Position numbers and translations under genes: made by a program
Shown here: positions 1 through 13,470 of the stretch, piece after piece
How positions within the stretch are numbered: position 1 is the stretch's first letter
How the letters are laid out: every line of letters begins with the position of its first letter
Origin: Escherichia coli
Lineage (GTDB): Bacteria; Pseudomonadota; Gammaproteobacteria; Enterobacterales; Enterobacteriaceae
Direction: 5' to 3' (one strand)
Length of the DNA: 13,470 nt
NCBI RefSeq assembly: GCF_003334315.1
Contig: NZ_QOWR01000082.1
Notes under the pieces: model-generated
Database searches by the model: none
What the model was told of the DNA's origin: nothing
Seen by the model: the letters and a program-made list of their open reading frames with translations, nothing else

Positions 1-149
1 GGTTGAGAAGCGGTGTAAGTGAACTGCAGTTGCCATGTTTTACGGCAGTGAGAGCAGAGATAGCGCTGATGTCCGGCGGTGCTTTTGCCGTTACGCACCA
101 CCCCGTCAGTAGCTGAACAGGAGGGACAGCTGATAGAAACAGAAGCCAC
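1..149 (-). CDS. insA: InsA (IS1 transposition regulator), N-terminal part; CDS runs off the window
   Basis: Minus-strand GTG at 149..147 followed by codons for [49 protein letters not shown], the known InsA N-terminus with its zinc-finger CxxC...CxxC. Not in the ORF track because it has no stop inside the window. Confidence 0.85.
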
Positions 150-204
150 TGGAGCACCTCAAAAACACCATCATACACTAAATCAGTAAGTTGGCATCAT
201 CACC
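1..204 (-). mobile_element. IS1: IS1 insertion sequence, left-end 204 bp; the element continues beyond the window start
   Basis: Reverse complement of 1..204 reads ggtgatgatgccaacttactgatttagtgtatgatggtgtttttgaggtgctccagtggcttctgtttc..., matching the IS1 terminal inverted repeat and 5' region as I recall them (one mismatch in the IR). The element boundary at 204/205 abuts yafO codon 20. Confidence 0.9.
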
Positions 205-264
205 CGCATCAAGTTCCTCTGCTGTAAGTTGCAGGCGAATAAGTTTTGTTTTGAATACCCGCAT
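205..264 (-). pseudogene. yafO: yafO (toxin of the yafN-yafO module), 5' remnant of 20 native codons interrupted by IS1
   Basis: Minus-strand ATG at 264..262, two nt after the yafN stop, encodes MRVFKTKLIRLQLTAEELDA, which matches the YafO N-terminus. The frame then enters the IS1 inverted repeat (GDDANLLI) and stops at 177..175. Confidence 0.8.
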
Positions 265-266
265 CC

Positions 267-560
267 TTATTCCTTAAAGTCATTGAAATCATCATCCGTC
301 ATATCATTAAGATATTTTTCAGCTCGGCGTGTAATTTCCTCTAATCTTGCAGCACTTGGACGGAAGCGCGCCTTTATGGGCTTTTTCTCCTCTTGTTCAG
401 CAAGCATGTCCATTAACGCTTCGAATGCGCTGGCACTTAAGAGATATCCTGCGGGGCGATTATTAGAAAGAACCGCAACCGGTTGATCAATAAAGTATTT
501 AGCTGGGTTTTTACGTAACTCAGTAATATTGACCGATTTTTCAGCGAGAATTCGATGCAT
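267..560 (-). CDS. yafN: YafN antitoxin (Phd/YefM-like), 97 aa
   Basis: The 97-aa ORF MHRILAEKSVNITELRKNPAKYF... matches K-12 YafN in length and sequence; ATG start at 560..558; sits 51 bp downstream of dinB on the same strand. Confidence 0.93.
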   Translation of the reverse strand: MHRILAEKSVNITELRKNPAKYFIDQPVAVLSNNRPAGYLLSASAFEALMDMLAEQEEKKPIKARFRPSAARLEEITRRAEKYLNDMTDDDFNDFKE

Positions 561-611
561 GCAGTGATCCCCTCATAATAATGCACACCAGAATAGACAT
601 AATAGTATACA

Positions 612-1667
612 TCATAATCCCAGCACCAGTTGTCTTTCCATTTGCGGATCAAGCAACGTCACATGCAGCCCCACCAGTCGCACACCGCGCCCGCCGCGGC
701 GTTCATCCCAGGTTTTACGCGCGGTGGCGATTAAGTCAGCTTTATTCAGCCGCGGCCAGACGTGCTCCTGAGTGGTTTGCTGAAAATCGTCGAACTTTAA
801 TTTCACCCCCTGGCGGGCAATCAGTAAATCAGGTTTTACCTTTGCCAGACGGCGTTCAAGTTCCGGATACAGCCGCTCGATAATCGCTTCACATTCAGAC
901 CAGTGGTGGATATCTTCCGCCATCGTGCGTTCCACGCCGACGGATTTTCGCAACCGTTCGCTGTTAACGTCGCGCTCGTCAATCCCCTGACTACGCTCCC
1001 ACAAAATGCGGCCAAATTTGCCAAAGCGTTTAAGCAGCATCACCAGATCACACTTTTGTACATCACCGCAGGTTCGTAGCCCCATCGCTTCCAGTTTTGC
1101 CGCCGAGACTTTGCCGACGCCGGGGATTTTTGCCAGTGGTAAGGTTTGTAAAAATGCCGGAACTTCTGCCGGCGTAATCACAAACTGGCCGTTGGGTTTA
1201 TTCATGTCGGAGGCGATTTTGGCGAGAAACTTTACGGGTGCCACGCCCGCAGACGCCGTCAGTTGCAGCTCGTTGAAAATCGTCTGGCGGATTTCCTGGG
1301 CGATGAGGGTCGCAGAACCGTGGCAATGGACGCTATCGGTGACGTCGAGATAAGCCTCATCCAGTGACAACGGTTCAATACGCGAGGTGTAGCGCGAGAA
1401 GATTTCGCGGATATGATTTGAGGCTTCTTTGTAGGCGTCAAAGCGCCCCGGAAGCAAGGTGAGATGCGGGCATAATTTGAGCGCCATCCCTGTCGGCATA
1501 GCGCTACGTACGCCAAATTTACGCGCGGGATAATTGGCGGTGCTGATCACCCCCCGACGTTCGCGGCTGCCGCCAATAGCAATAGGGATATCGCGCAGGG
1601 CGGGATTGTCGCGCATCTCCACTGCGGCGAAAAAGCAGTCCATATCCACATGAATGATTTTACGCAT
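612..1667 (-). CDS. dinB: DNA polymerase IV (Y-family translesion polymerase), 351 aa
   Basis: The 351-aa [36 protein letters not shown]... carries the Y-family catalytic motif ([10 protein letters not shown]) and matches DinB in length; ATG at 1667..1665 preceded by a GAGGTG Shine-Dalgarno. Confidence 0.97.
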
Positions 1668-1681
1668 TACTCACCTCTCAA

Positions 1682-1701
1682 CACTGGTAAAGTATACAGT
1701 G
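1682..1701. promoter_or_regulatory. LexA operator (SOS box) of dinB
   Basis: cactggtaaagtatacagtg, whose reverse complement is CACTGTATACTTTACCAGTG (CTGT-N8-CCAG, one mismatch to the CTGT-N8-ACAG consensus), lies about 15-35 bp upstream of the dinB start. Confidence 0.8.
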
Positions 1702-1737
1702 ATTTCAGGGTTTGAGAAATGCGTAAAGATTCAGCAT

Positions 1738-2467
1738 TTAGCGCGTTCGCTGCGAAAGCACCTGCTGCTTATCCAGCTTTTGCACCAGCGGCTGCACCAC
1801 TTTATCCCCATGCTGACCAAAGTATTGATACAGCGTATCGGACGCACTTTTGGTCAGCACCATAATCTCGATGCGCCGATTACCCGCACTTTGCGGATTC
1901 TTCGCGTCCAGCAGCATCTGGTCCGCCATTGCGCTTACCTGCATCACTTTATCTTCCGGCATTCCGGCCTCTTCCAGCACCCGACGAGCCGAAAGCGCGC
2001 GGTCACCCGAAAGGTTCCAGTTGTTGTAGATATTGTTTTTGTAGGCCATCGCATCGGTATGCCCGGTAATAATAATTTTATTATCGAGCGAGTCGAACAC
2101 TGGCGCGAGCTCCACCAGCAGCGTTTTAAAGAACGGCATAATCTTCGCGCTGCCGCGTTCAAACATATTGCGGTTCTGGTCATCTTTAATCAGCACGCGC
2201 AATCCCTGGGGAACAATCTCCATCTCCAGATTCGCTTCCATATGCGCATCACGGGCAATGGTGTTGATACTGGTTGCCAGCTCGCCAAGCTCGGTGGCGG
2301 ATTTCTTCTTCAGCAGCGCTGTTTTCTCGTTGACGTCTCGCGCTTTTTTCTCCGTCTCTTCCGGCACCGCCACGGTGGCAGGTTTTGGCGGATGAGACGG
2401 GCTGATTTTATTTAACGGCGACAATCCGCCGCCACTGAAAATCGACTGCCCGTGCAGCGCGGCGATA
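1738..2467 (-). pseudogene. lafU: lafU (mbhA), 5'-truncated MotB-like gene of the lateral flagellar (Flag-2) system; upstream boundary approximate
   Basis: The minus ORF 1738..2628 contains a MotB/OmpA-like C-terminal domain (LRVLIKDDQNRNMFERGS...IIITGHTDAMAYKNNIYNNWNLSGDRALSARRVL) but no N-terminal transmembrane helix. Its first ~50 codons are antisense lfhA sequence, so the real remnant starts somewhere around 2450-2490. Confidence 0.75.
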
Positions 2468-4207
<1,740 letters not shown>

Positions 4208-4230
4208 GTATCCAGCATTGGTGCACAACT

Positions 4231-4418
4231 GCCGGATGCGGCGTGAACGCCTTATCCGTCCTACCGTTCAGGCACAAGTTTGTAGGCATGATAAGACGCG
4301 CCAGCGTCGCATCAGGCATCTGCGCATAACTGCCGGATGCGGCATAAACGCCTTATCCGGCCTACCGATCCGGCACAAGTTTGTAGGCATGATAAGACGC
4401 GCTAGCGTCGCATCAGGC
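4231..4418. repeat. BIME: four REP (repetitive extragenic palindrome) units in alternating orientation
   Basis: gccggatgcggcgtgaacgccttatccgtcctac (4231-4264), tgtaggcatgataagacgcgccagcgtcgcatcaggc (4281-4317), gccggatgcggcataaacgccttatccggcctac (4332-4365), tgtaggcatgataagacgcgctagcgtcgcatcaggc (4382-4418). Confidence 0.85.
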
Positions 4419-4430
4419 ATCTGCGCACAA

Positions 4431-4928
4431 TTATGAAATGATACGCTCCCCGGCACTAAAATCCGTTACGTCCCCCGCCCAATCGATGGGATATAACCCT
4501 CGCGCGACATCGCGATGGAACGTTGAGAATGGCCAATCACTCACTTGCTTTACCCAACCATGCTTTACTGGATTTATATAAATATAATCAACATGATGCC
4601 TATAATCTTTGGTATTGCGGATGGCGTGCTCCCAAAAACGTGGTTGCCAGATATTTTTCAATCCACAAGCATGGGTAAATTGCTTTTTAATTTCCCGCCA
4701 GCGCGAGGAAAAATCATCATCGCCTTCAGGTAATGTCCAGATACAGTGCATATGCTCTGGCAAAACGACCCAGGCGTTGATTTCAAAAGGCCTGTCTCGC
4801 TTAACTTTAATAATGGCGTGACGGAGCATCTGGTACTGGGTGGTCAAGAGTTGGCTTCGACGATTGCGTAAATTCACCGTGAAAAACCAGGTTCCCCCCT
4901 TGATGTAATAACGACGATATTCAGACAT
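4431..4928 (-). CDS. rayT: RayT (YafM), REP-associated tyrosine transposase of the HuH / IS200-IS605 TnpA-like family, 165 aa
   Basis: The 165-aa ORF has the HuH motif (PEHMHCIW) and a C-terminal tyrosine region (YRHHVDYIYINPVKHGW); ATG at 4928..4926; REP clusters lie on both sides. Confidence 0.92.
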   Translation of the reverse strand: MSEYRRYYIKGGTWFFTVNLRNRRSQLLTTQYQMLRHAIIKVKRDRPFEINAWVVLPEHMHCIWTLPEGDDDFSSRWREIKKQFTHACGLKNIWQPRFWEHAIRNTKDYRHHVDYIYINPVKHGWVKQVSDWPFSTFHRDVARGLYPIDWAGDVTDFSAGERIIS

Positions 4929-5022
4929 GGCGACTCCTTTTTCTCAACGGTAAGAAGAAAAGGAAAGGTCGGCAATGAGGTGATGGAATAACAGGAAAGC
5001 GGCTCGCAAAAACGCACAGATT

Positions 5023-5853
<831 letters not shown>

Positions 5854-6030
5854 TCTCAATAATGGCTGGTCATGCATTGATGTTACAGTGTATCCCGGCC
5901 CGTACCTGAACAAACTTAATAAACCATTATTATAAAATTAATAAATATATTTCAGTTAATTATGTAAAAACATCCGTTTATTAAATTACTCATGGATTGT
6001 CGCTGTTGCTCATTTGAGCTACAATTCAAG

Positions 6031-6046
6031 CTGAATAAATATACAG
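6031..6046. promoter_or_regulatory. LexA operator (SOS box) upstream of dinJ-yafQ
   Basis: ctgaataaatatacag (CTGA-N8-ACAG, one mismatch to consensus) lies 17 bp upstream of the dinJ ATG, in an AT-rich divergent promoter region shared with yafL. Confidence 0.7.
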
Positions 6047-6062
6047 CACAGGAGATCCCCCA

Positions 6063-6323
6063 ATGGCTGCTAACGCGTTTGTTCGCGCCCGAATCGATGA
6101 AGATCTGAAGAATCAGGCGGCGGACGTACTGGCCGGGATGGGGCTGACCATCTCTGACCTGGTTCGCATAACCCTCACAAAGGTCGCGCGTGAAAAGGCA
6201 TTGCCGTTTGATTTACGCGAGCCTAATCAATTAACCATTCAATCAATCAAAAACAGCGAAGCTGGCGTTGATGTTCATAAGGCCAAAGACGCCGATGATT
6301 TATTTGATAAATTAGGAATTTAA
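6063..6323 (+). CDS. dinJ: DinJ antitoxin (RHH/RelB-like), 86 aa
   Basis: The 86-aa ORF MAANAFVRARIDEDLKNQAADVLAGMGLTISDLVRITLTKVAREKALPF... is preceded by an AGGAG Shine-Dalgarno; its stop is 2 nt before the yafQ ATG. Confidence 0.95.
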   Translation: MAANAFVRARIDEDLKNQAADVLAGMGLTISDLVRITLTKVAREKALPFDLREPNQLTIQSIKNSEAGVDVHKAKDADDLFDKLGI

Positions 6324-6325
6324 AT

Positions 6326-6604
6326 ATGATTCAAAGGGATATTGAATACTCGGGACAATTTTCAAAGGATGTAAAACTTGCACAAAAGCGTCATAAGGAT
6401 ATGAATAAATTGAAATATCTTATGACGCTTCTTATCAATAATGCTTTACCGCTTCCAGCTGTTTATAAAGACCACCCGCTGCAAGGTTCATGGAAAGGTT
6501 ATCGCGATGCTCATGTCGAACCGGACTGGATCCTGATTTACAAACTTACCGATAAACTTTTACGATTTGAGAGAACTGGAACTCACGCGGCGCTCTTTGG
6601 GTAA
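6326..6604 (+). CDS. yafQ: YafQ toxin (RelE-family ribosome-dependent mRNA endoribonuclease), 92 aa
   Basis: The 92-aa ORF MIQRDIEYSGQFSKDVKLAQKRHKD... is translationally coupled to dinJ (taaatATG). Confidence 0.95.
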   Translation: MIQRDIEYSGQFSKDVKLAQKRHKDMNKLKYLMTLLINNALPLPAVYKDHPLQGSWKGYRDAHVEPDWILIYKLTDKLLRFERTGTHAALFG

Positions 6605-6759
6605 AGCACGCTGCCGATGAAATTTGTAAACCCTGCGCCGACAGGCTTGCGTAAAACTCTTTTGGTGATAATGTGAGCCTTCCAAATCCAGACTATTCCG
6701 ATTTGGGATCTATTTTGCCGTCCTGGCGTGTGTAACCGTTTTATCAAGGAATAAGCAGT

Positions 6760-7500
6760 ATGCGTAAAATCGCATTAATTCTTGCGATGTTGTTGATCCC
6801 GTGCGTTTCGTTTGCCGGTTTGCTGGGCAGCAGTAGCTCGACCACGCCAGTGAGCAAAGAGTATAAGCAGCAGTTGATGGGATCCCCTGTCTACATCCAG
6901 ATCTTCAAGGAAGAACGTACGCTCGATCTCTACGTCAAAATGGGCGAGCAATATCAACTGCTCGACAGCTATAAAATCTGTAAATATTCCGGCGGCTTAG
7001 GGCCAAAACAGCGTCAGGGCGATTTCAAAAGCCCGGAAGGGTTTTATAGCGTCCAGCGTAATCAGTTAAAACCAGACAGCCGTTACTACAAAGCGATTAA
7101 TATTGGTTTCCCCAATGCCTATGACCGTGCGCATGGTTATGAAGGGAAATACCTGATGATCCACGGCGATTGTGTTTCCATCGGCTGCTACGCAATGACC
7201 AATCAGGGTATTGATGAGATATTCCAGTTCGTTACTGGTGCGCTGGTGTTTGGTCAGCCGAGCGTGCAAGTGAGTATTTACCCGTTCCGCATGACCGACG
7301 CCAATATGAAGCGCCATAAATATTCCAACTTTAAGGACTTCTGGGAGCAGCTGAAGCCGGGTTACGACTACTTTGAGCAAACCCGTAAGCCACCAACCGT
7401 TTCTGTGGTCAATGGTCGTTACGTGGTCAGCAAGCCGTTAAGCCACGAAGTTGTGCAGCCACAACTGGCATCAAACTACACGCTCCCCGAGGCAAAATAA
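6760..7500 (+). CDS. yafK: YafK (DpaA/LdtF), YkuD-fold L,D-transpeptidase-like periplasmic protein, 246 aa
   Basis: Signal peptide [19 protein letters not shown] followed by a YkuD-like catalytic region ([18 protein letters not shown] with a conserved Cys); AAGGA Shine-Dalgarno upstream of ATG 6760. Confidence 0.92.
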
Positions 7501-8238
7501 GCGCCATTCGCCTGGCATAATCTTTTGCCAGGTTTCATTGCCCGTCAGCGGCTGTGTTGCAATCACCGTGACCACATCATTCGGTGTGGTCTGCGAGCTG
7601 AAGTCGATTTCCACATCCTGATCCAGCAACGTTGCCACGCCAAACGGCGCGCGGCGGGTGATCCAGTGTAAATTAGTCGAGCAATACGCCATTACATAGC
7701 GACCGTCCGAAAGCAGCATGTTGAAAACGCCCTTCGCCCGCAGTTCATCCGCCAGTGAGGCGATATATTTAAACACTGCCGCCATGTTGCCCGGCGTGCG
7801 CGGGTAACGCTGCGTTAATTTATGCAGGAGCCAGCAAAAGGCTTTTTCGCTGTCGGTTTCGCCTACCGGGCGGAAGTTGCCGGTTTCCAGTGATTTGTAG
7901 CCCGTCAGTTGTCCGTTATGGGCATAAGTCCAGTTACGCCCCCATAACTCGCGGGTAAATGGGTGAGTATTTTCCAGCGCCACCTCGCCCCGATTAGCCT
8001 GGCGAATATGAGCCACCACCGAACAGGATTTTATCGGGTAGTCCTGGACAAGTTTGGCGATGGGGGAATTAAAGCTGGGTTGTGGATCTTTAAATGTGCG
8101 ACAGCCTTTACCTTCGTAAAAGGTAATGCCCCAGCCATCTTTATGTGGCCCGGTTCCACCACCACGCTGTACAAGCCCGGTGAAACTAAAGCAGATATCG
8201 GTAGGGACGTTGGCGCTCATCCCGAGCAATTCGCACAT
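7471..8238 (-). CDS. yafJ: YafJ, class II (Ntn-type) glutamine amidotransferase-like protein, 255 aa
   Basis: Starts [19 protein letters not shown]: a Cys at position 2 after Met is the hallmark of Ntn class II GATases. GGAGG Shine-Dalgarno 7 nt upstream of ATG 8238..8236; the track ORF is extended 5 codons by a TTG. Confidence 0.9.
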
Positions 8239-8302
8239 GGGTAACCTCCACAACAGCGGGAGCGCATGGCCCCCGGCGAAGATTGATTTAAGAATTTTCA
8301 GG

Positions 8303-8436
8303 TCGGATGCGGCGTGAACGCATTATTCGGCCTACGGTTCGCGTACAGATTTGTAGGCATGATAAGACGCGTCAGCGTCGCATCAGGCATCAGCGCACAA
8401 ATGCCGGATGCGGCGTAAACGTCTTATCCGGCCTAC
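8303..8436. repeat. BIME: three REP units between gmhA and yafJ
   Basis: tcggatgcggcgtgaacgcattattcggcctac (8303-8335), tgtaggcatgataagacgcgtcagcgtcgcatcaggc (8352-8388), gccggatgcggcgtaaacgtcttatccggcctac (8403-8436). Confidence 0.85.
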
Positions 8437-8443
8437 GCCAGAC

Positions 8444-9022
8444 TTACTTAACCATCTCTTTTTCAATCAACTGGATCAGGATATGGATCACTTTAATGTG
8501 AATCTCCTGAATGCGGTCGGCATAACCAAAGTGCGGTACGCGAATTTCGATATCCGCCGTGCCAGCCATTTTGCCGCCGTCTTTACCGGTCAGGGTGATC
8601 ACTTTCATTCCCTTCTCACGCGCCGCTGCGATCGCTTTGATCACGTTTGCAGAGTTACCGGAGGTGGAGATCCCCAGCAGTACATCGCCTTCGCGACCTA
8701 CCGCTTCAACGTAGCGGGAGAAAATATCATTGAAACCGAAATCATTACCGACGCAGGAAATATGACTAACGTCAGAAATAGCAATCGCCGGGTAGCCCGG
8801 ACGGTTTTCACGGTAGCGACCGGTCAACTCTTCGGCAAAGTGCATAGCGTCGCAATGGGAACCGCCGTTGCCGCAGGAAAGCACTTTGCCACCGGCTTTA
8901 AAGCTGTCTGCTAACAGGACCGCCGCGCGCTGAATGGCGTGAATATTGGCGTCATCTTTTAAAAAGTTAGCCAGCGTTTCCGCCGCTTCGTTCAGTTCGT
9001 TACGAATAAGATCCTGGTACAT
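8444..9022 (-). CDS. gmhA: GmhA (LpcA), sedoheptulose-7-phosphate isomerase (SIS domain), 192 aa
   Basis: [20 protein letters not shown]...[18 protein letters not shown] matches GmhA; ATG at 9022..9020 with an AAGGA Shine-Dalgarno. The track ORF is extended 11 codons from an upstream TTG. Confidence 0.95.
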
Positions 9023-9223
9023 GAGGATATCCTTCAGCATAAATGTAATAGACAAAATGCAGTGTACCGGATACCGCCAAAAGCGAGAAGTACGGGCAGG
9101 TGCTATGACCAGGACTTTTTGACCTGAAGTGCGGATAAAAACAGCAACAATGTGAGCTTTGTTGTAATTATATTGTAAACATATTGCTAAATGTTTTTAC
9201 ATCCACTACAACCATATCATCAC

Positions 9224-9240
9224 AAGTGGTCAGACCTCCT
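9224..9240. promoter_or_regulatory. FadR operator in the fadE promoter
   Basis: aagtggtcagacctcct contains the TGGTCnGACCT core of FadR operators and lies about 25-40 bp upstream of the fadE ATG. Confidence 0.65.
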
Positions 9241-9261
9241 ACAAGTAAGGGGCTTTTCGTT

Positions 9262-11706
9262 ATGATGATTTTGAGTATTCTCGCTACGGTTGTCCTGCTC
9301 GGCGCGTTGTTCTATCACCGCGTGAGCTTATTTATCAGCAGTCTGATTTTGCTCGCCTGGACAGCCGCCCTCGGCGTTGCTGGTCTGTGGTCGGCGTGGG
9401 TACTGGTGCCTCTGGCCATTATCCTCGTGCCATTTAACTTTGCGCCTATGCGTAAGTCGATGATTTCCGCGCCGGTATTTCGCGGTTTCCGTAAGGTGAT
9501 GCCGCCGATGTCGCGCACTGAGAAAGAAGCGATTGATGCGGGCACCACCTGGTGGGAGGGCGACTTGTTCCAGGGCAAGCCGGACTGGAAAAAGCTGCAT
9601 AACTATCCGCAGCCGCGCCTGACCGCCGAAGAGCAAGCGTTTCTCGACGGCCCGGTAGAAGAAGCCTGCCGGATGGCGAATGATTTCCAGATCACCCATG
9701 AGCTGGCGGATCTGCCGCCGGAGTTGTGGGCGTACCTTAAAGAGCATCGTTTCTTCGCGATGATCATCAAAAAAGAGTACGGCGGGCTGGAGTTCTCGGC
9801 TTATGCCCAGTCTCGCGTGCTGCAAAAACTCTCCGGCGTGAGCGGGATCCTGGCGATTACCGTCGGCGTGCCAAACTCATTAGGCCCGGGCGAACTGTTG
9901 CAACATTACGGCACTGACGAGCAGAAAGATCACTATCTGCCGCGTCTGGCGCGTGGTCAGGAGATCCCCTGCTTTGCACTGACCAGCCCGGAAGCGGGTT
10001 CCGATGCGGGCGCGATTCCGGACACCGGGATTGTCTGCATGGGCGAATGGCAGGGCCAGCAGGTGCTGGGGATGCGTCTGACCTGGAACAAACGCTACAT
10101 TACGCTGGCACCGATTGCGACCGTGCTTGGGCTGGCGTTTAAACTCTCCGACCCGGAAAAATTACTCGGCGGTGCAGAAGATTTAGGCATTACCTGTGCG
10201 CTGATCCCAACCACCACGCCGGGCGTGGAAATTGGTCGTCGCCACTTCCCGCTGAACGTACCGTTCCAGAACGGACCGACGCGCGGTAAAGATGTCTTCG
10301 TGCCGATCGATTACATCATCGGCGGGCCGAAAATGGCCGGGCAAGGCTGGCGGATGCTGGTGGAGTGCCTCTCGGTAGGCCGCGGCATCACCCTGCCTTC
10401 CAACTCAACCGGCGGCGTGAAATCGGTAGCGCTGGCAACCGGCGCGTATGCTCACATTCGCCGTCAGTTCAAAATCTCTATTGGTAAGATGGAAGGGATT
10501 GAAGAGCCGCTGGCGCGTATTGCCGGTAATGCCTACGTGATGGATGCTGCGGCATCGCTGATTACCTACGGCATTATGCTCGGCGAAAAACCTGCCGTGC
10601 TGTCGGCTATCGTTAAGTATCACTGTACCCACCGCGGGCAGCAGTCGATTATTGATGCGATGGATATTACCGGCGGTAAAGGCATTATGCTCGGGCAAAG
10701 CAACTTCCTGGCGCGTGCTTACCAGGGCGCACCGATTGCCATCACCGTTGAAGGGGCTAACATTCTGACCCGCAGCATGATGATCTTCGGACAAGGAGCG
10801 ATTCGTTGCCATCCGTACGTGCTGGAAGAGATGGAAGCGGCGAAGAACAATGACGTCAACGCGTTCGATAAACTGTTGTTCAAACATATCGGTCACGTCG
10901 GTAGCAACAAAGTTCGCAGCTTCTGGCTGGGCCTGACGCGCGGTTTAACCAGCAGCACGCCAACCGGCGATGCCACTAAACGCTACTATCAGCACCTGAA
11001 CCGCCTGAGCGCCAACCTCGCCCTGCTTTCTGATGTCTCGATGGCAGTGCTGGGCGGCAGCCTGAAACGTCGCGAGCGCATCTCGGCCCGTCTGGGGGAT
11101 ATTTTAAGCCAGCTCTACCTCGCCTCTGCCGTGCTGAAGCGTTATGACGACGAAGGCCGTAATGAAGCCGACCTGCCGCTGGTGCACTGGGGCGTACAAG
11201 ATGCGCTGTATCAGGCTGAACAGGCGATGGATGATTTACTGCAAAACTTCCCGAACCGCGTGGTTGCCGGGCTGCTGAATGTGGTGATCTTCCCGACCGG
11301 ACGTCATTATCTGGCACCTTCTGACAAGCTGGATCATAAAGTGGCGAAGATTTTACAAGTGCCGAACGCCACCCGTTCCCGCATTGGTCGCGGTCAGTAC
11401 CTGACGCCGAGCGAGCATAATCCGGTTGGCTTGCTGGAAGAGGCGCTGGTGGATGTGATTGCCGCCGACCCAATTCATCAGCGGATCTGTAAAGAGCTGG
11501 GTAAAAACCTGCCGTTTACCCGTCTGGATGAACTGGCGCACAACGCGCTGGTGAAGGGGCTGATTGATAAAGATGAAGCCGCTATTCTGGTGAAAGCTGA
11601 AGAAAGCCGTCTGCGCAGTATTAACGTTGATGACTTTGATCCGGAAGAGCTGGCGACGAAGCCGGTAAAGTTGCCGGAGAAAGTGCGGAAAGTTGAAGCC
11701 GCGTAA
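9262..11706 (+). CDS. fadE: FadE, acyl-CoA dehydrogenase of fatty-acid beta-oxidation, 814 aa
   Basis: Long ORF with an N-terminal membrane-anchor-like region ([17 protein letters not shown]...) and acyl-CoA dehydrogenase domains. The start is taken at ATG 9262 (814 aa) rather than the track ATG at 9184, because the FadR operator at 9224-9240 falls inside the extension. Confidence 0.95.
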
Positions 11707-11712
11707 ATGAAT

Positions 11713-11740
11713 AACGGAGCCGAAAGGCTCCGTTTCTTTA
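11713..11740. terminator. Rho-independent terminator hairpin between convergent fadE and ivy, probably bidirectional
   Basis: aacggagcc-gaaa-ggctccgtt forms a 9-bp stem with a 4-nt loop, followed by tctttat on the plus strand and a T-rich run on the minus strand. It sits 7 nt after the fadE stop and 9 nt after the ivy stop. Confidence 0.6.
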
Positions 11741-11748
11741 TCCGCTAA

Positions 11749-12222
11749 TTATTTAAAATTAAAGCCATCCGGATGGTTTTCCAGGCTGCCGGTCAACGCC
11801 GCGAACAACACCGTTTTACCATCAATCGAAAGCGCATCGTTCACATTCAGCCAGGTGAGTTTCTCTTGCGACGTTTTCTCATCAATAGTCGAGAACAGCC
11901 CCGTCATCTGATTAGATTTCTCGGACCACATCACAGCGATACGTTGCGAGCCACAGTCATGCGGTTTGCACGCGCTCATCACCTGATACGTCTCATCTCC
12001 CAACGTTACGGTTTGTGCGGGAGTATAAGTACCGCCTTTCATCACCCAGGCAGGCAGCTTATGCCCTTGTACCATCTGATTAAATGCAGCTTTGGTGGTT
12101 TCGCCCTTTGCAAGGCTGCTAATGGTTAAATCATCCTGCGCCATTGCACTGGTGGCGATGACCAGAGCGGCGACTGTCGTTATTGCCTTAAACATCATTC
12201 CTCCCGAGCTTATCCTGCCCAT
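11749..12222 (-). CDS. ivy: Ivy, periplasmic inhibitor of vertebrate (C-type) lysozyme, 157 aa
   Basis: The 157-aa ORF has a signal peptide (MGRISSGGMMFKAITTVAALVIATSAMA) and the CKPHDC loop characteristic of Ivy; AGGAGG Shine-Dalgarno 8 nt upstream of ATG 12222..12220. Confidence 0.93.
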   Translation of the reverse strand: MGRISSGGMMFKAITTVAALVIATSAMAQDDLTISSLAKGETTKAAFNQMVQGHKLPAWVMKGGTYTPAQTVTLGDETYQVMSACKPHDCGSQRIAVMWSEKSNQMTGLFSTIDEKTSQEKLTWLNVNDALSIDGKTVLFAALTGSLENHPDGFNFK

Positions 12223-12375
12223 GTTATTAACCTCCTAAAGCCTGGCGATAACACGATAATTTGCAAATCAGATATTTCCAATATCAGCATTTGTTATCAA
12301 TTTATTCTGCGCTAAGGCAACTGCCTGATAAGGTGTTAAAGTTATAAAACCCTTCGCATAAAGGAGTTGTACACC

Positions 12376-13146
12376 GTGCCTGGTTTGAAGATTACGCTTT
12401 TGCAGCAACCACTGGTGTGGATGGATGGTCCTGCCAACCTGCGTCATTTTGATCGTCAACTGGAAGGTATTACCGGGCGCGATGTGATCGTTCTACCGGA
12501 GATGTTTACCAGCGGCTTTGCCATGGAAGCGGCAGCTTCGTCGCTAGCACAAGATGACGTAGTGAACTGGATGACAGCTAAGGCGCAGCAGTGCAATGCG
12601 CTGATTGCAGGCAGTGTTGCATTACAAACGGAGTCTGGTTCGGTTAACCGCTTTTTGCTGGTTGAGCCGGGCGGCACGGTACATTTTTATGATAAGCGTC
12701 ATCTGTTCCGCATGGCAGATGAGCATCTACATTATAAAGCGGGCAATGCGCGAGTGATTGTGGAATGGCGCGGCTGGCGTATTTTGCCGCTGGTGTGCTA
12801 CGACTTACGTTTTCCTGTGTGGTCGCGCAATCTCAACGATTATGACCTCGCCCTGTACGTCGCCAACTGGCCTGCTCCGCGCTCTCTGCACTGGCAGGCA
12901 TTGCTGACGGCCCGCGCGATTGAGAATCAGGCGTATGTGGCGGGATGCAATCGCGTCGGCAGCGATGGCAACGGCTGCCATTATCGCGGTGACAGCCGGG
13001 TGATTAATCCGCAAGGAGAGATTATCGCTACTGCCGACGCGCATCAGGCAACGCGCATTGATGCGGAGCTGTCGATGGCAGCATTGCGGGAATATAGAGA
13101 AAAGTTTCCGGCATGGCAGGATGCGGATGAGTTTAGGTTGTGGTGA
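12376..13146 (+). CDS. yafV: YafV, nitrilase-superfamily (CN-hydrolase) omega-amidase / 2-oxoglutaramate amidase, 256 aa with GTG start
   Basis: CN-hydrolase fold with a probable catalytic triad (E in VLPEMF, K in FYDKRHLF, C in LVCYDLRFP). AAGGAG at 12361-12366 is 9 nt upstream of GTG 12376; the track ATG at 12367 directly abuts the Shine-Dalgarno and is an unlikely start. Confidence 0.88.
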   Translation: MPGLKITLLQQPLVWMDGPANLRHFDRQLEGITGRDVIVLPEMFTSGFAMEAAASSLAQDDVVNWMTAKAQQCNALIAGSVALQTESGSVNRFLLVEPGGTVHFYDKRHLFRMADEHLHYKAGNARVIVEWRGWRILPLVCYDLRFPVWSRNLNDYDLALYVANWPAPRSLHWQALLTARAIENQAYVAGCNRVGSDGNGCHYRGDSRVINPQGEIIATADAHQATRIDAELSMAALREYREKFPAWQDADEFRLW

Positions 13147-13186
13147 GTGGGGGTTGTGTTTAAGGACGGGGAGAGTCGGGGTATTA

Positions 13187-13470
13187 CTACGAAAGCCCGC
13201 TCCCCGCAAGGACTGACGCCAGGTAGTTTCTGTCCATGGCTGCTTTTCGCATCTTACGTCTTAACCCTGCCTTGAATACCTTCTCATTCGTCAAAATATT
13301 AATAGCAATGTGCCGTATCCCTGAAAATAATTCTGCTGCGTTTCCTCTTCTTATTTTGTAGTCGTCTTCATTCATTACCACGTCCAGACGCCTGTGCAGC
13401 TTATTCTCCACGTGCCAGTGGTTTCGGATTGCTGTGGCGAACTTCTCTGCGGTTAAATCAGCAGAACTGA
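13187..13470 (-). mobile_element. ISAs1-family (H-repeat-associated) transposase, C-terminal portion; the reading frame continues beyond the window end
   Basis: The minus-strand frame reads ...[93 protein letters not shown], with the HWHVENKLH...RGNAAE signature of ISAs1/H-repeat transposase C-termini. The track's 74-aa ORF is only the part after an internal GTG. Confidence 0.7.

Follow-up and report, generated by a model that had tools for sequence, protein, structure and literature searches.

Does SOS induction still drive dinB and yafN in an Escherichia coli genome in which the toxin gene of the same operon has been broken? A sequence-only reading of the 13,470-nt stretch analysed here (the window) had answered that it should, on the grounds of a near-consensus LexA box in front of dinB; combined with an intact antitoxin gene and an IS1 break in yafO, this would give the polymerase and the antitoxin but no functional YafO toxin. 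The window corresponds, in reverse-strand orientation, to the dinB neighbourhood of K-12 type, and from position 207 to 13470 it is 100% identical, over 13,264 bases, to the chromosomes of 14EC001, 2017.04.03CC and BL12 as well as to other complete chromosomes. The gene map was obtained by transferring the 14EC001 annotation to window coordinates. The dinB operon and its control region are made up of the following features.

1-204, minus strand: left end of IS1, with the left inverted repeat (IRL) at 204 and the insA GTG at 149, cut by the window edge
178-264, minus strand: truncated yafO frame, from translation, with 20 YafO codons and 8 IS1-encoded codons up to TAG
205-264, minus strand: yafO remnant, transferred annotation
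267-560, minus strand: yafN, antitoxin, intact open reading frame of 97 aa
561-640, minus strand: end of dinB and dinB-yafN spacer with the proximal yafNO promoter, from a promoter scan
612-1667, minus strand: dinB, DNA polymerase IV, intact open reading frame of 351 aa
1668-1681, minus strand: short leader from the box to the dinB ATG, with the Shine-Dalgarno sequence TTGAGAGGTGAGTA
1682-1701, minus strand: dinB LexA operator (SOS box) CACTGTATACTTTACCAGTG, from sequence, K-12 identity and PWM
1691-1718, minus strand: predicted sigma-70 dinB promoter, from a consensus scan with 9/12 matches

The remainder of the window is occupied by these features, all by transferred annotation.

1738-2523, minus strand: lafU
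2489-4207, plus strand: flhA/lfhA pseudogene
4431-4928, minus strand: rayT
5104-5847, minus strand: yafL
6063-6323, plus strand: dinJ
6326-6604, plus strand: yafQ
6760-7500, plus strand: dpaA
7471-8238, minus strand: yafJ
8444-9022, minus strand: lpcA
9262-11706, plus strand: fadE
11749-12195, minus strand: ivy
12376-13146, plus strand: yafV

The short lafU (1738-2523) and the N-terminally truncated flhA (2489-4207) constitute a K-12-type remnant of the Flag-2 lateral flagellar locus. In KCTC 2571 and MS 21-1, motA, fliA and a longer lafU are retained immediately upstream of dinB. An Rfam scan of the window returned only three naRNA4 (REP-derived) elements, all of them far from the dinB box; these matches, of 74-78 bits, were located at 4285-4362, 5027-5104 and 8356-8433, all on the minus strand, and two of the three flank the REP-associated transposase gene rayT (4431-4928).

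The 20-bp box, CACTGTATACTTTACCAGTG, is the minus-strand reading of window positions 1682-1701 (CACTGGTAAAGTATACAGTG on the plus strand). Box and dinB share a strand, with 14 nt between the end of the box and the dinB ATG, and the box is base for base the dinB (dinP) operator sequence found at positions 250864-250883 of E. coli K-12 MG1655. Together with its flanks, the box equals the K-12 dinB motif ATCACTGTATACTTTACCAGTGTTG (PMC3009722 Table 4). The sequence being identical to the K-12 operator, the claim that the dinB operator is present and intact at this position was upheld, whereas its description as near-consensus was overstated. The CTG-N10-CAG frame is retained; of the two half-sites, CTGTAT is perfect and CTGGTA contains one core mismatch. 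Compared with the consensus TACTGTATATATATACAGTA, 13/20 positions match and 7/20 do not, and with seven mismatches the dinB box ties with polB as the worst among 18 boxes. The published heterology index of the dinB operator is 9.4, which lies towards the weak end of the classical set (PMC11228462 Table 1). The box was also scored with a symmetric LexA PWM derived from UV-induced SOS boxes of PMC3009722 Table 4, namely the 17 that remain when dinB is left out. In this leave-one-out PWM the dinB box reached 13.67 bits and ranked 2 among 13,451 window positions, with the dinJ box first; among the training boxes, polB scored 13.75 bits and the remaining 16 boxes scored 18-29 bits. By sequence alone, the dinB box is a moderate match to the LexA consensus, and the operator is a weak one.

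A match of this quality raises the question of whether the 20-mer is palindromic by chance alone and has no part in regulation. A score of at least 13.67 bits was present somewhere in 28 of 500 dinucleotide shuffles (5.6%) of the whole 13.5-kb window, a frequency that leaves some room for chance; in the window itself, only four CTG-N10-CAG frames were found. However, the 20-mer is base for base the operator of a classical LexA-regulated gene, it stands 14 nt before an ATG and over the predicted -10 hexamer, and it has been kept across Escherichia species whereas neighbouring bases vary. A chance origin is also contradicted by the K-12 literature, and we consider it extremely improbable. The box is placed beyond chance by its position, its identity to a characterised operator, and its conservation in Escherichia.

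The 121-nt promoter region was present at 95% identity or more in 5,414 of 5,426 complete E. coli genomes. In an alignment of seven E. coli loci, the window among them (96-100% identity), the 16-bp CTG..CAG core was constant and variation of the box was confined to outer positions 1 and 20. At position 1, MSHS 133 has T in place of C, and at position 20, AR_0104 has A in place of G; each of these natural variants moves the box towards the LexA consensus by 3.3 bits, and, judged from this gain, lineages with the T1 or A20 variant may repress dinB slightly more tightly. Outermost-position variants (C1 to T or G20 to A) were also seen among other loci, including that of E. albertii NBRC 107761. 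An exact 18-mer scan, with one genome per species, placed the 18-mer before dinB in five Escherichia representatives (E. coli, E. albertii, E. whittamii, E1V33 and MOD1-EC7003), and the distance from the box to ATGCGTAAAATCAT (the dinB start) was equal in all five. Five further matches were obtained in unrelated organisms, with about nine expected by chance as estimated from the size of the collection.

Two of the loci inspected carried disruptions at or next to the box. In MS 21-1 (NZ_CP146670.1, locus 2560-4470), an ISL3-like ISEc53 transposase gene and an adjacent ClbS/DfsB-family gene lie within the dinB LexA box. The insertion splits both the box and the -10 hexamer and is accompanied by an 8-bp target duplication, ATACTTTA; dinB in MS 21-1 is probably uncoupled from LexA. 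The species representative E. albertii NBRC 107761 (~2840-2880, minus strand) retains the LexA box and the Shine-Dalgarno sequence along with 14 nt of the dinB start, after which the sequence diverges into phage-like ORFs, as judged by eye. In this representative, dinB thus appears to be interrupted at its 5' end.

The predicted dinB promoter consists of a -35 hexamer TTCTCA at 1718-1713, a spacer of 16 nt, and a -10 hexamer TATACT at 1696-1691. On the strength of this 9/12 consensus match, the predicted -10 falls within the LexA box. Both hexamers were constant in every aligned E. coli and Escherichia locus. Only 70 bp separate lafU from dinB, leaving any dinB promoter either to overlap the box or to sit upstream of it. 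When the region from -170 to yafO nt 60 was compared with MG1655, the upstream differences were limited to positions -74 and -2, the latter a C to T change in the leader. The -35, the spacer, the -10, the LexA box and the Shine-Dalgarno sequence were all identical to those of MG1655.

Both genes directly downstream of the box are intact. DinB matched the Pol IV equivalog model NCBIfam NF002677 with 546.9 bits (cutoff 256), and its protein sequence is that of K-12 DinB. The 27 nucleotide differences that separate dinB from its MG1655 counterpart are all synonymous (27/27), a strong sign of purifying selection on Pol IV. YafN matched the YafN equivalog model NCBIfam NF007300 over positions 1-97 of 97 with 196.7 bits (cutoff 99) and differs from the K-12 protein by the single substitution Q82K. 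The 97-aa frame at 267-560 (minus strand) is thus full length on its equivalog, as expected for the intact antitoxin that had been proposed. The yafN stretch has 100% DNA identity to that of 14EC001 (WP_000554757.1), in which an intact yafO comes next. In NF007300 and the RefSeq product name, YafN is given as a 'type I toxin-antitoxin system antitoxin', an inconsistency in the library naming, since YafN is a protein and the antitoxin of a type II pair (Phd-like, with a weak TIGR01552 match).

The toxin gene is not intact. Only nt 1-60 of yafO are left (window 264-205), which match the reference up to nt 60 and diverge from it thereafter. The IS1 left inverted repeat (GGTGATGATGCCAACTTACTG...) begins at window 204 and abuts yafO nt 60, which confirmed the IS1 break. 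The IRL reads GGTGATGATGCCAACTTACTGATTTAGTG, the element has the orientation of the dinB operon, and 204 of the 768 bp of IS1 lie within the window. The InsA N-terminus (49 aa) matched the IS1 zinc-binding domain and IS1 transposase models (NF050000, 42.8 bits, cutoff 28), and the IS1 stretch in the window is 100% identical to the prfH-adjacent IS1 copy of 2017.17.03CC. Translation of the stub gave MRVFKTKLIRLQLTAEELDA followed by GDDANLLI and a stop, 28 codons in all, with the TAG located within the IS1 inverted repeat. The next Met of K-12 YafO presumably lies near the C-terminus. Because only 20 of the 132 YafO codons remain, this locus is unable to yield a functional YafO toxin and is defective as a YafNO type II toxin-antitoxin pair, with YafN an orphan antitoxin. 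IS1 insertions are classically polar, and therefore any yafP downstream of the element is probably cut off from the SOS promoter.

To place this junction among other E. coli, it was searched for in 5,426 complete genomes by megablast. The exact yafO nt 60-IS1 junction was absent from all of them: 22 matches of nominally full coverage were each made up of two pieces, with IS1 elsewhere, and no single piece spanned the junction. IS1 was found near the junction site in 41 of the 5,426 genomes, in both orientations. The first junction search, which detects same-orientation copies only, identified 22 genomes with IS1 within ~680 bp downstream, and a synthetic query containing the IS1 right end identified 19 genomes with IS1 in the opposite orientation. 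An orientation bias of IS1 was rejected on these counts (22 same vs 19 opposite). The six loci examined in detail each had a junction of their own: five lie in yafO-yafP, and the sixth, in 2017.17.03CC, lies ~1.25 kb downstream of the yafO ATG beside prfH. Two IS1 copies appear to lie at or just past the end of yafN. Simple insertions with target duplications were recognised in BKQ37E, EC0026B and 2017.17.03CC, and adjacent loss at IS1 was recognised in ATCC 8739 (at yafO nt 135) and JX21CE35. The proposal that all yafO-proximal IS1 copies are leftward deletions from one prfH-side IS1 was rejected as a general rule, since BKQ37E and EC0026B are simple insertions.

The junction in the window could itself be the endpoint of an IS1-mediated adjacent deletion, which would have removed the rest of yafO, and possibly also yafP and the rtcB/ykfJ remnants, and reduced the operon to dinB-yafN. 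In ATCC 8739 / KCTC 2571, yafO ends at nt 135 against IS1 and is followed directly by a prfH remnant, yafP being gone, and in JX21CE35 an IS1 copy has 216 bp missing alongside it. In addition, the window is matched at 100% identity over dinB-yafN by 2017.17.03CC, in which a co-oriented IS1 copy, of the IRL variant GGTGATGATGCC seen in the window, lies 1.25 kb downstream beside prfH. The simple IS1 insertions of BKQ37E and EC0026B, with their 8-9-bp target duplications, argue against it. The window stops 204 nt into IS1, so a simple insertion and a deletion are indistinguishable here; we regard the deletion as a possibility to be kept in mind, with the chances leaning against it.

IS1 copies in yafN-yafO-yafP were in a rough few-fold excess over random placement, a count that is inflated by clonal relatives and drawn from an AT-rich region. 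This region has 41-44% G+C, compared with 52% for the whole window, which fits the known preference of IS1 for AT-rich targets. About 40-50% of E. coli strains are without yafNO (PMC3105422). With recurrent IS1 on one side and yafNO-less strains on the other, YafO loss is thus an ordinary and evidently tolerated state. Since the IS1 copy is co-oriented with the operon and no terminator was predicted before it, LexA-controlled read-through into insA is conceivable. We consider it highly unlikely that read-through into insA/insAB' makes the expression or transposition of this IS1 copy SOS-responsive or, as a separate matter, that the recurrence of IS1 reflects selection against YafO/YafP; as an alternative to selection, the recurrence might reflect a target preference for AT-rich, dispensable DNA.

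The arrangement of the operon is compatible with read-through from the dinB promoter. From dinB (612-1667) through yafN (267-560) to the start of yafO (264), all genes are on the minus strand and are separated by short spacers up to the IS1 junction, and a window scan found no terminator-like site between dinB and yafN or in the operon spacers. In K-12, dinB was induced 5.4-fold by AZT and showed a LexA dependence of 6.9-fold (PMC11228462). Mitomycin C induction of yafNO mRNA in K-12 was lost upon deletion of the dinB promoter (PMC2814082), and ciprofloxacin co-induced dinB, yafN, yafO and yafP (PMC11002266 Table 1).

We propose that this 20-bp sequence serves the E. coli dinB-yafN-yafO-yafP operon as its native LexA operator. 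When bound, a LexA dimer would cover both the -10 hexamer and the point at which transcription likely starts, thereby blocking RNA polymerase. Upon DNA damage, RecA-stimulated self-cleavage of LexA would free the promoter, and transcription would proceed via dinB into yafN. Because the operator is weak, repression is expected to be leaky and induction modest (~5- to 10-fold in K-12). In the strain studied here the transcript would meet IS1 after yafO codon 20, such that damage would raise Pol IV and YafN and yield no YafO; a further supply of YafN would come from the autoregulated promoter that lies directly before its gene. The K-12 literature is the source for LexA dependence and for read-through along the operon, and we infer that the strain behaves as K-12. 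With the transfer from K-12 made by sequence identity, we hold this explanation, including the production of Pol IV and YafN without YafO during SOS, to be very likely correct. The proposal that SOS drives dinB and yafN and gives no YafO is therefore supported by an identical promoter, intact genes, the lack of a predicted terminator and the published inductions, all as a transfer from K-12.

The second source of YafN could nevertheless dominate its supply. In K-12, yafNO was reported to have two promoters, the proximal one being autoregulated by YafN and unresponsive to SOS (PMC2814082); it responds to translation inhibition and amino-acid starvation via Lon (PMC2814082). In the window, the promoter scan identified a promoter-like site at the corresponding place, with a -35 hexamer TGGAAA from 640 and a -10 hexamer TATGAT to 611. 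The suggestion of PMC2814082 that the proximal promoter has a functional LexA box of its own, the second in the operon, was rejected: no credible LexA box was found there, the top PWM score in 541-680 being -2.8 bits. The absence of a LexA-like site agrees with the negative induction result of PMC2814082. Since yafN has its own autoregulated promoter, SOS is not the sole driver of the antitoxin. It could be argued from this that YafN supply is set mainly by the proximal promoter and not by the LexA box. With YafO gone, YafN alone would autoregulate its level and SOS read-through would be of little consequence, and 'antitoxin without toxin under SOS' would be formally true and physiologically empty. 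Both the reported promoter pair and the promoter-like site at 640-611 are consistent with this argument, as is the weaker induction of yafN (log2 ~2.0) than of dinB (log2 ~3.1) by ciprofloxacin (PMC11002266). However, the damage response of yafNO mRNA depended wholly on the dinB promoter (PMC2814082), and the proximal region, at best -2.8 bits, offers LexA no site of its own. We consider it rather doubtful that the proximal promoter prevails, and its contribution adds to the LexA-operator explanation and does not replace it.

Little at this locus is new. Published work already covers the dinB operator, the four-gene operon and the fact that natural E. coli can dispense with yafNO, and yafO::IS1 is an ordinary strain-level polymorphism and no new system. 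The sole strain-specific item is the private yafO::IS1 allele at nt 60, shared by 0 of 5,426 complete genomes. With this allele, YafN is left as an orphan that is controlled in two ways, and yafP is probably disconnected from the SOS promoter. YafP has been reported to work together with Pol IV (PMC3105422), and for this reason the allele could matter for studies of Pol IV/YafP, or of toxin-antitoxin-linked stress phenotypes, in this strain.

Two toxin-antitoxin loci in the window are associated with an SOS box; one of them is intact and the other is broken. The intact locus is dinJ-yafQ, which is preceded by ~15 nt by a LexA-type box, AGCTGAATAAATATACAGCA, at 6029-6048 (plus strand), the best PWM score in the window. 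Like the dinB box, it is an SOS-type operator just upstream of the first gene at a toxin-antitoxin locus; unlike the dinB box, it scores 20.0 rather than 13.7 bits, directly precedes the antitoxin gene, and is followed by two intact genes.

The closest relative of the broken locus is the K-12 MG1655 dinB operon, with which it shares the 20-bp box, the -35, the -10, the Shine-Dalgarno sequence, the DinB protein and the gene order dinB-yafN-yafO. It differs from the K-12 operon in that IS1 truncates yafO after nt 60, YafN has the substitution Q82K, the -74 and -2 positions are substituted, and the window is without yafP. The yafO::IS1 allele of ATCC 8739 / KCTC 2571 is similar in that a co-oriented IS1 truncates yafO while dinB and yafN are intact. 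In contrast, the junction in those strains is at yafO nt 135 (here nt 60), yafP has been lost, and the IRL variant is GGTGATGCTGCC. A comparable outcome by another route is found in CFT073 and in all ECOR B1 strains tested, which have a two-gene dinB-yafP operon that is SOS-controlled and likewise without YafO activity (PMC3105422). There, yafN and yafO have been cleanly deleted and dinB overlaps yafP by ATGA, whereas in the locus described here the antitoxin has been orphaned and the loss occurred via IS1.
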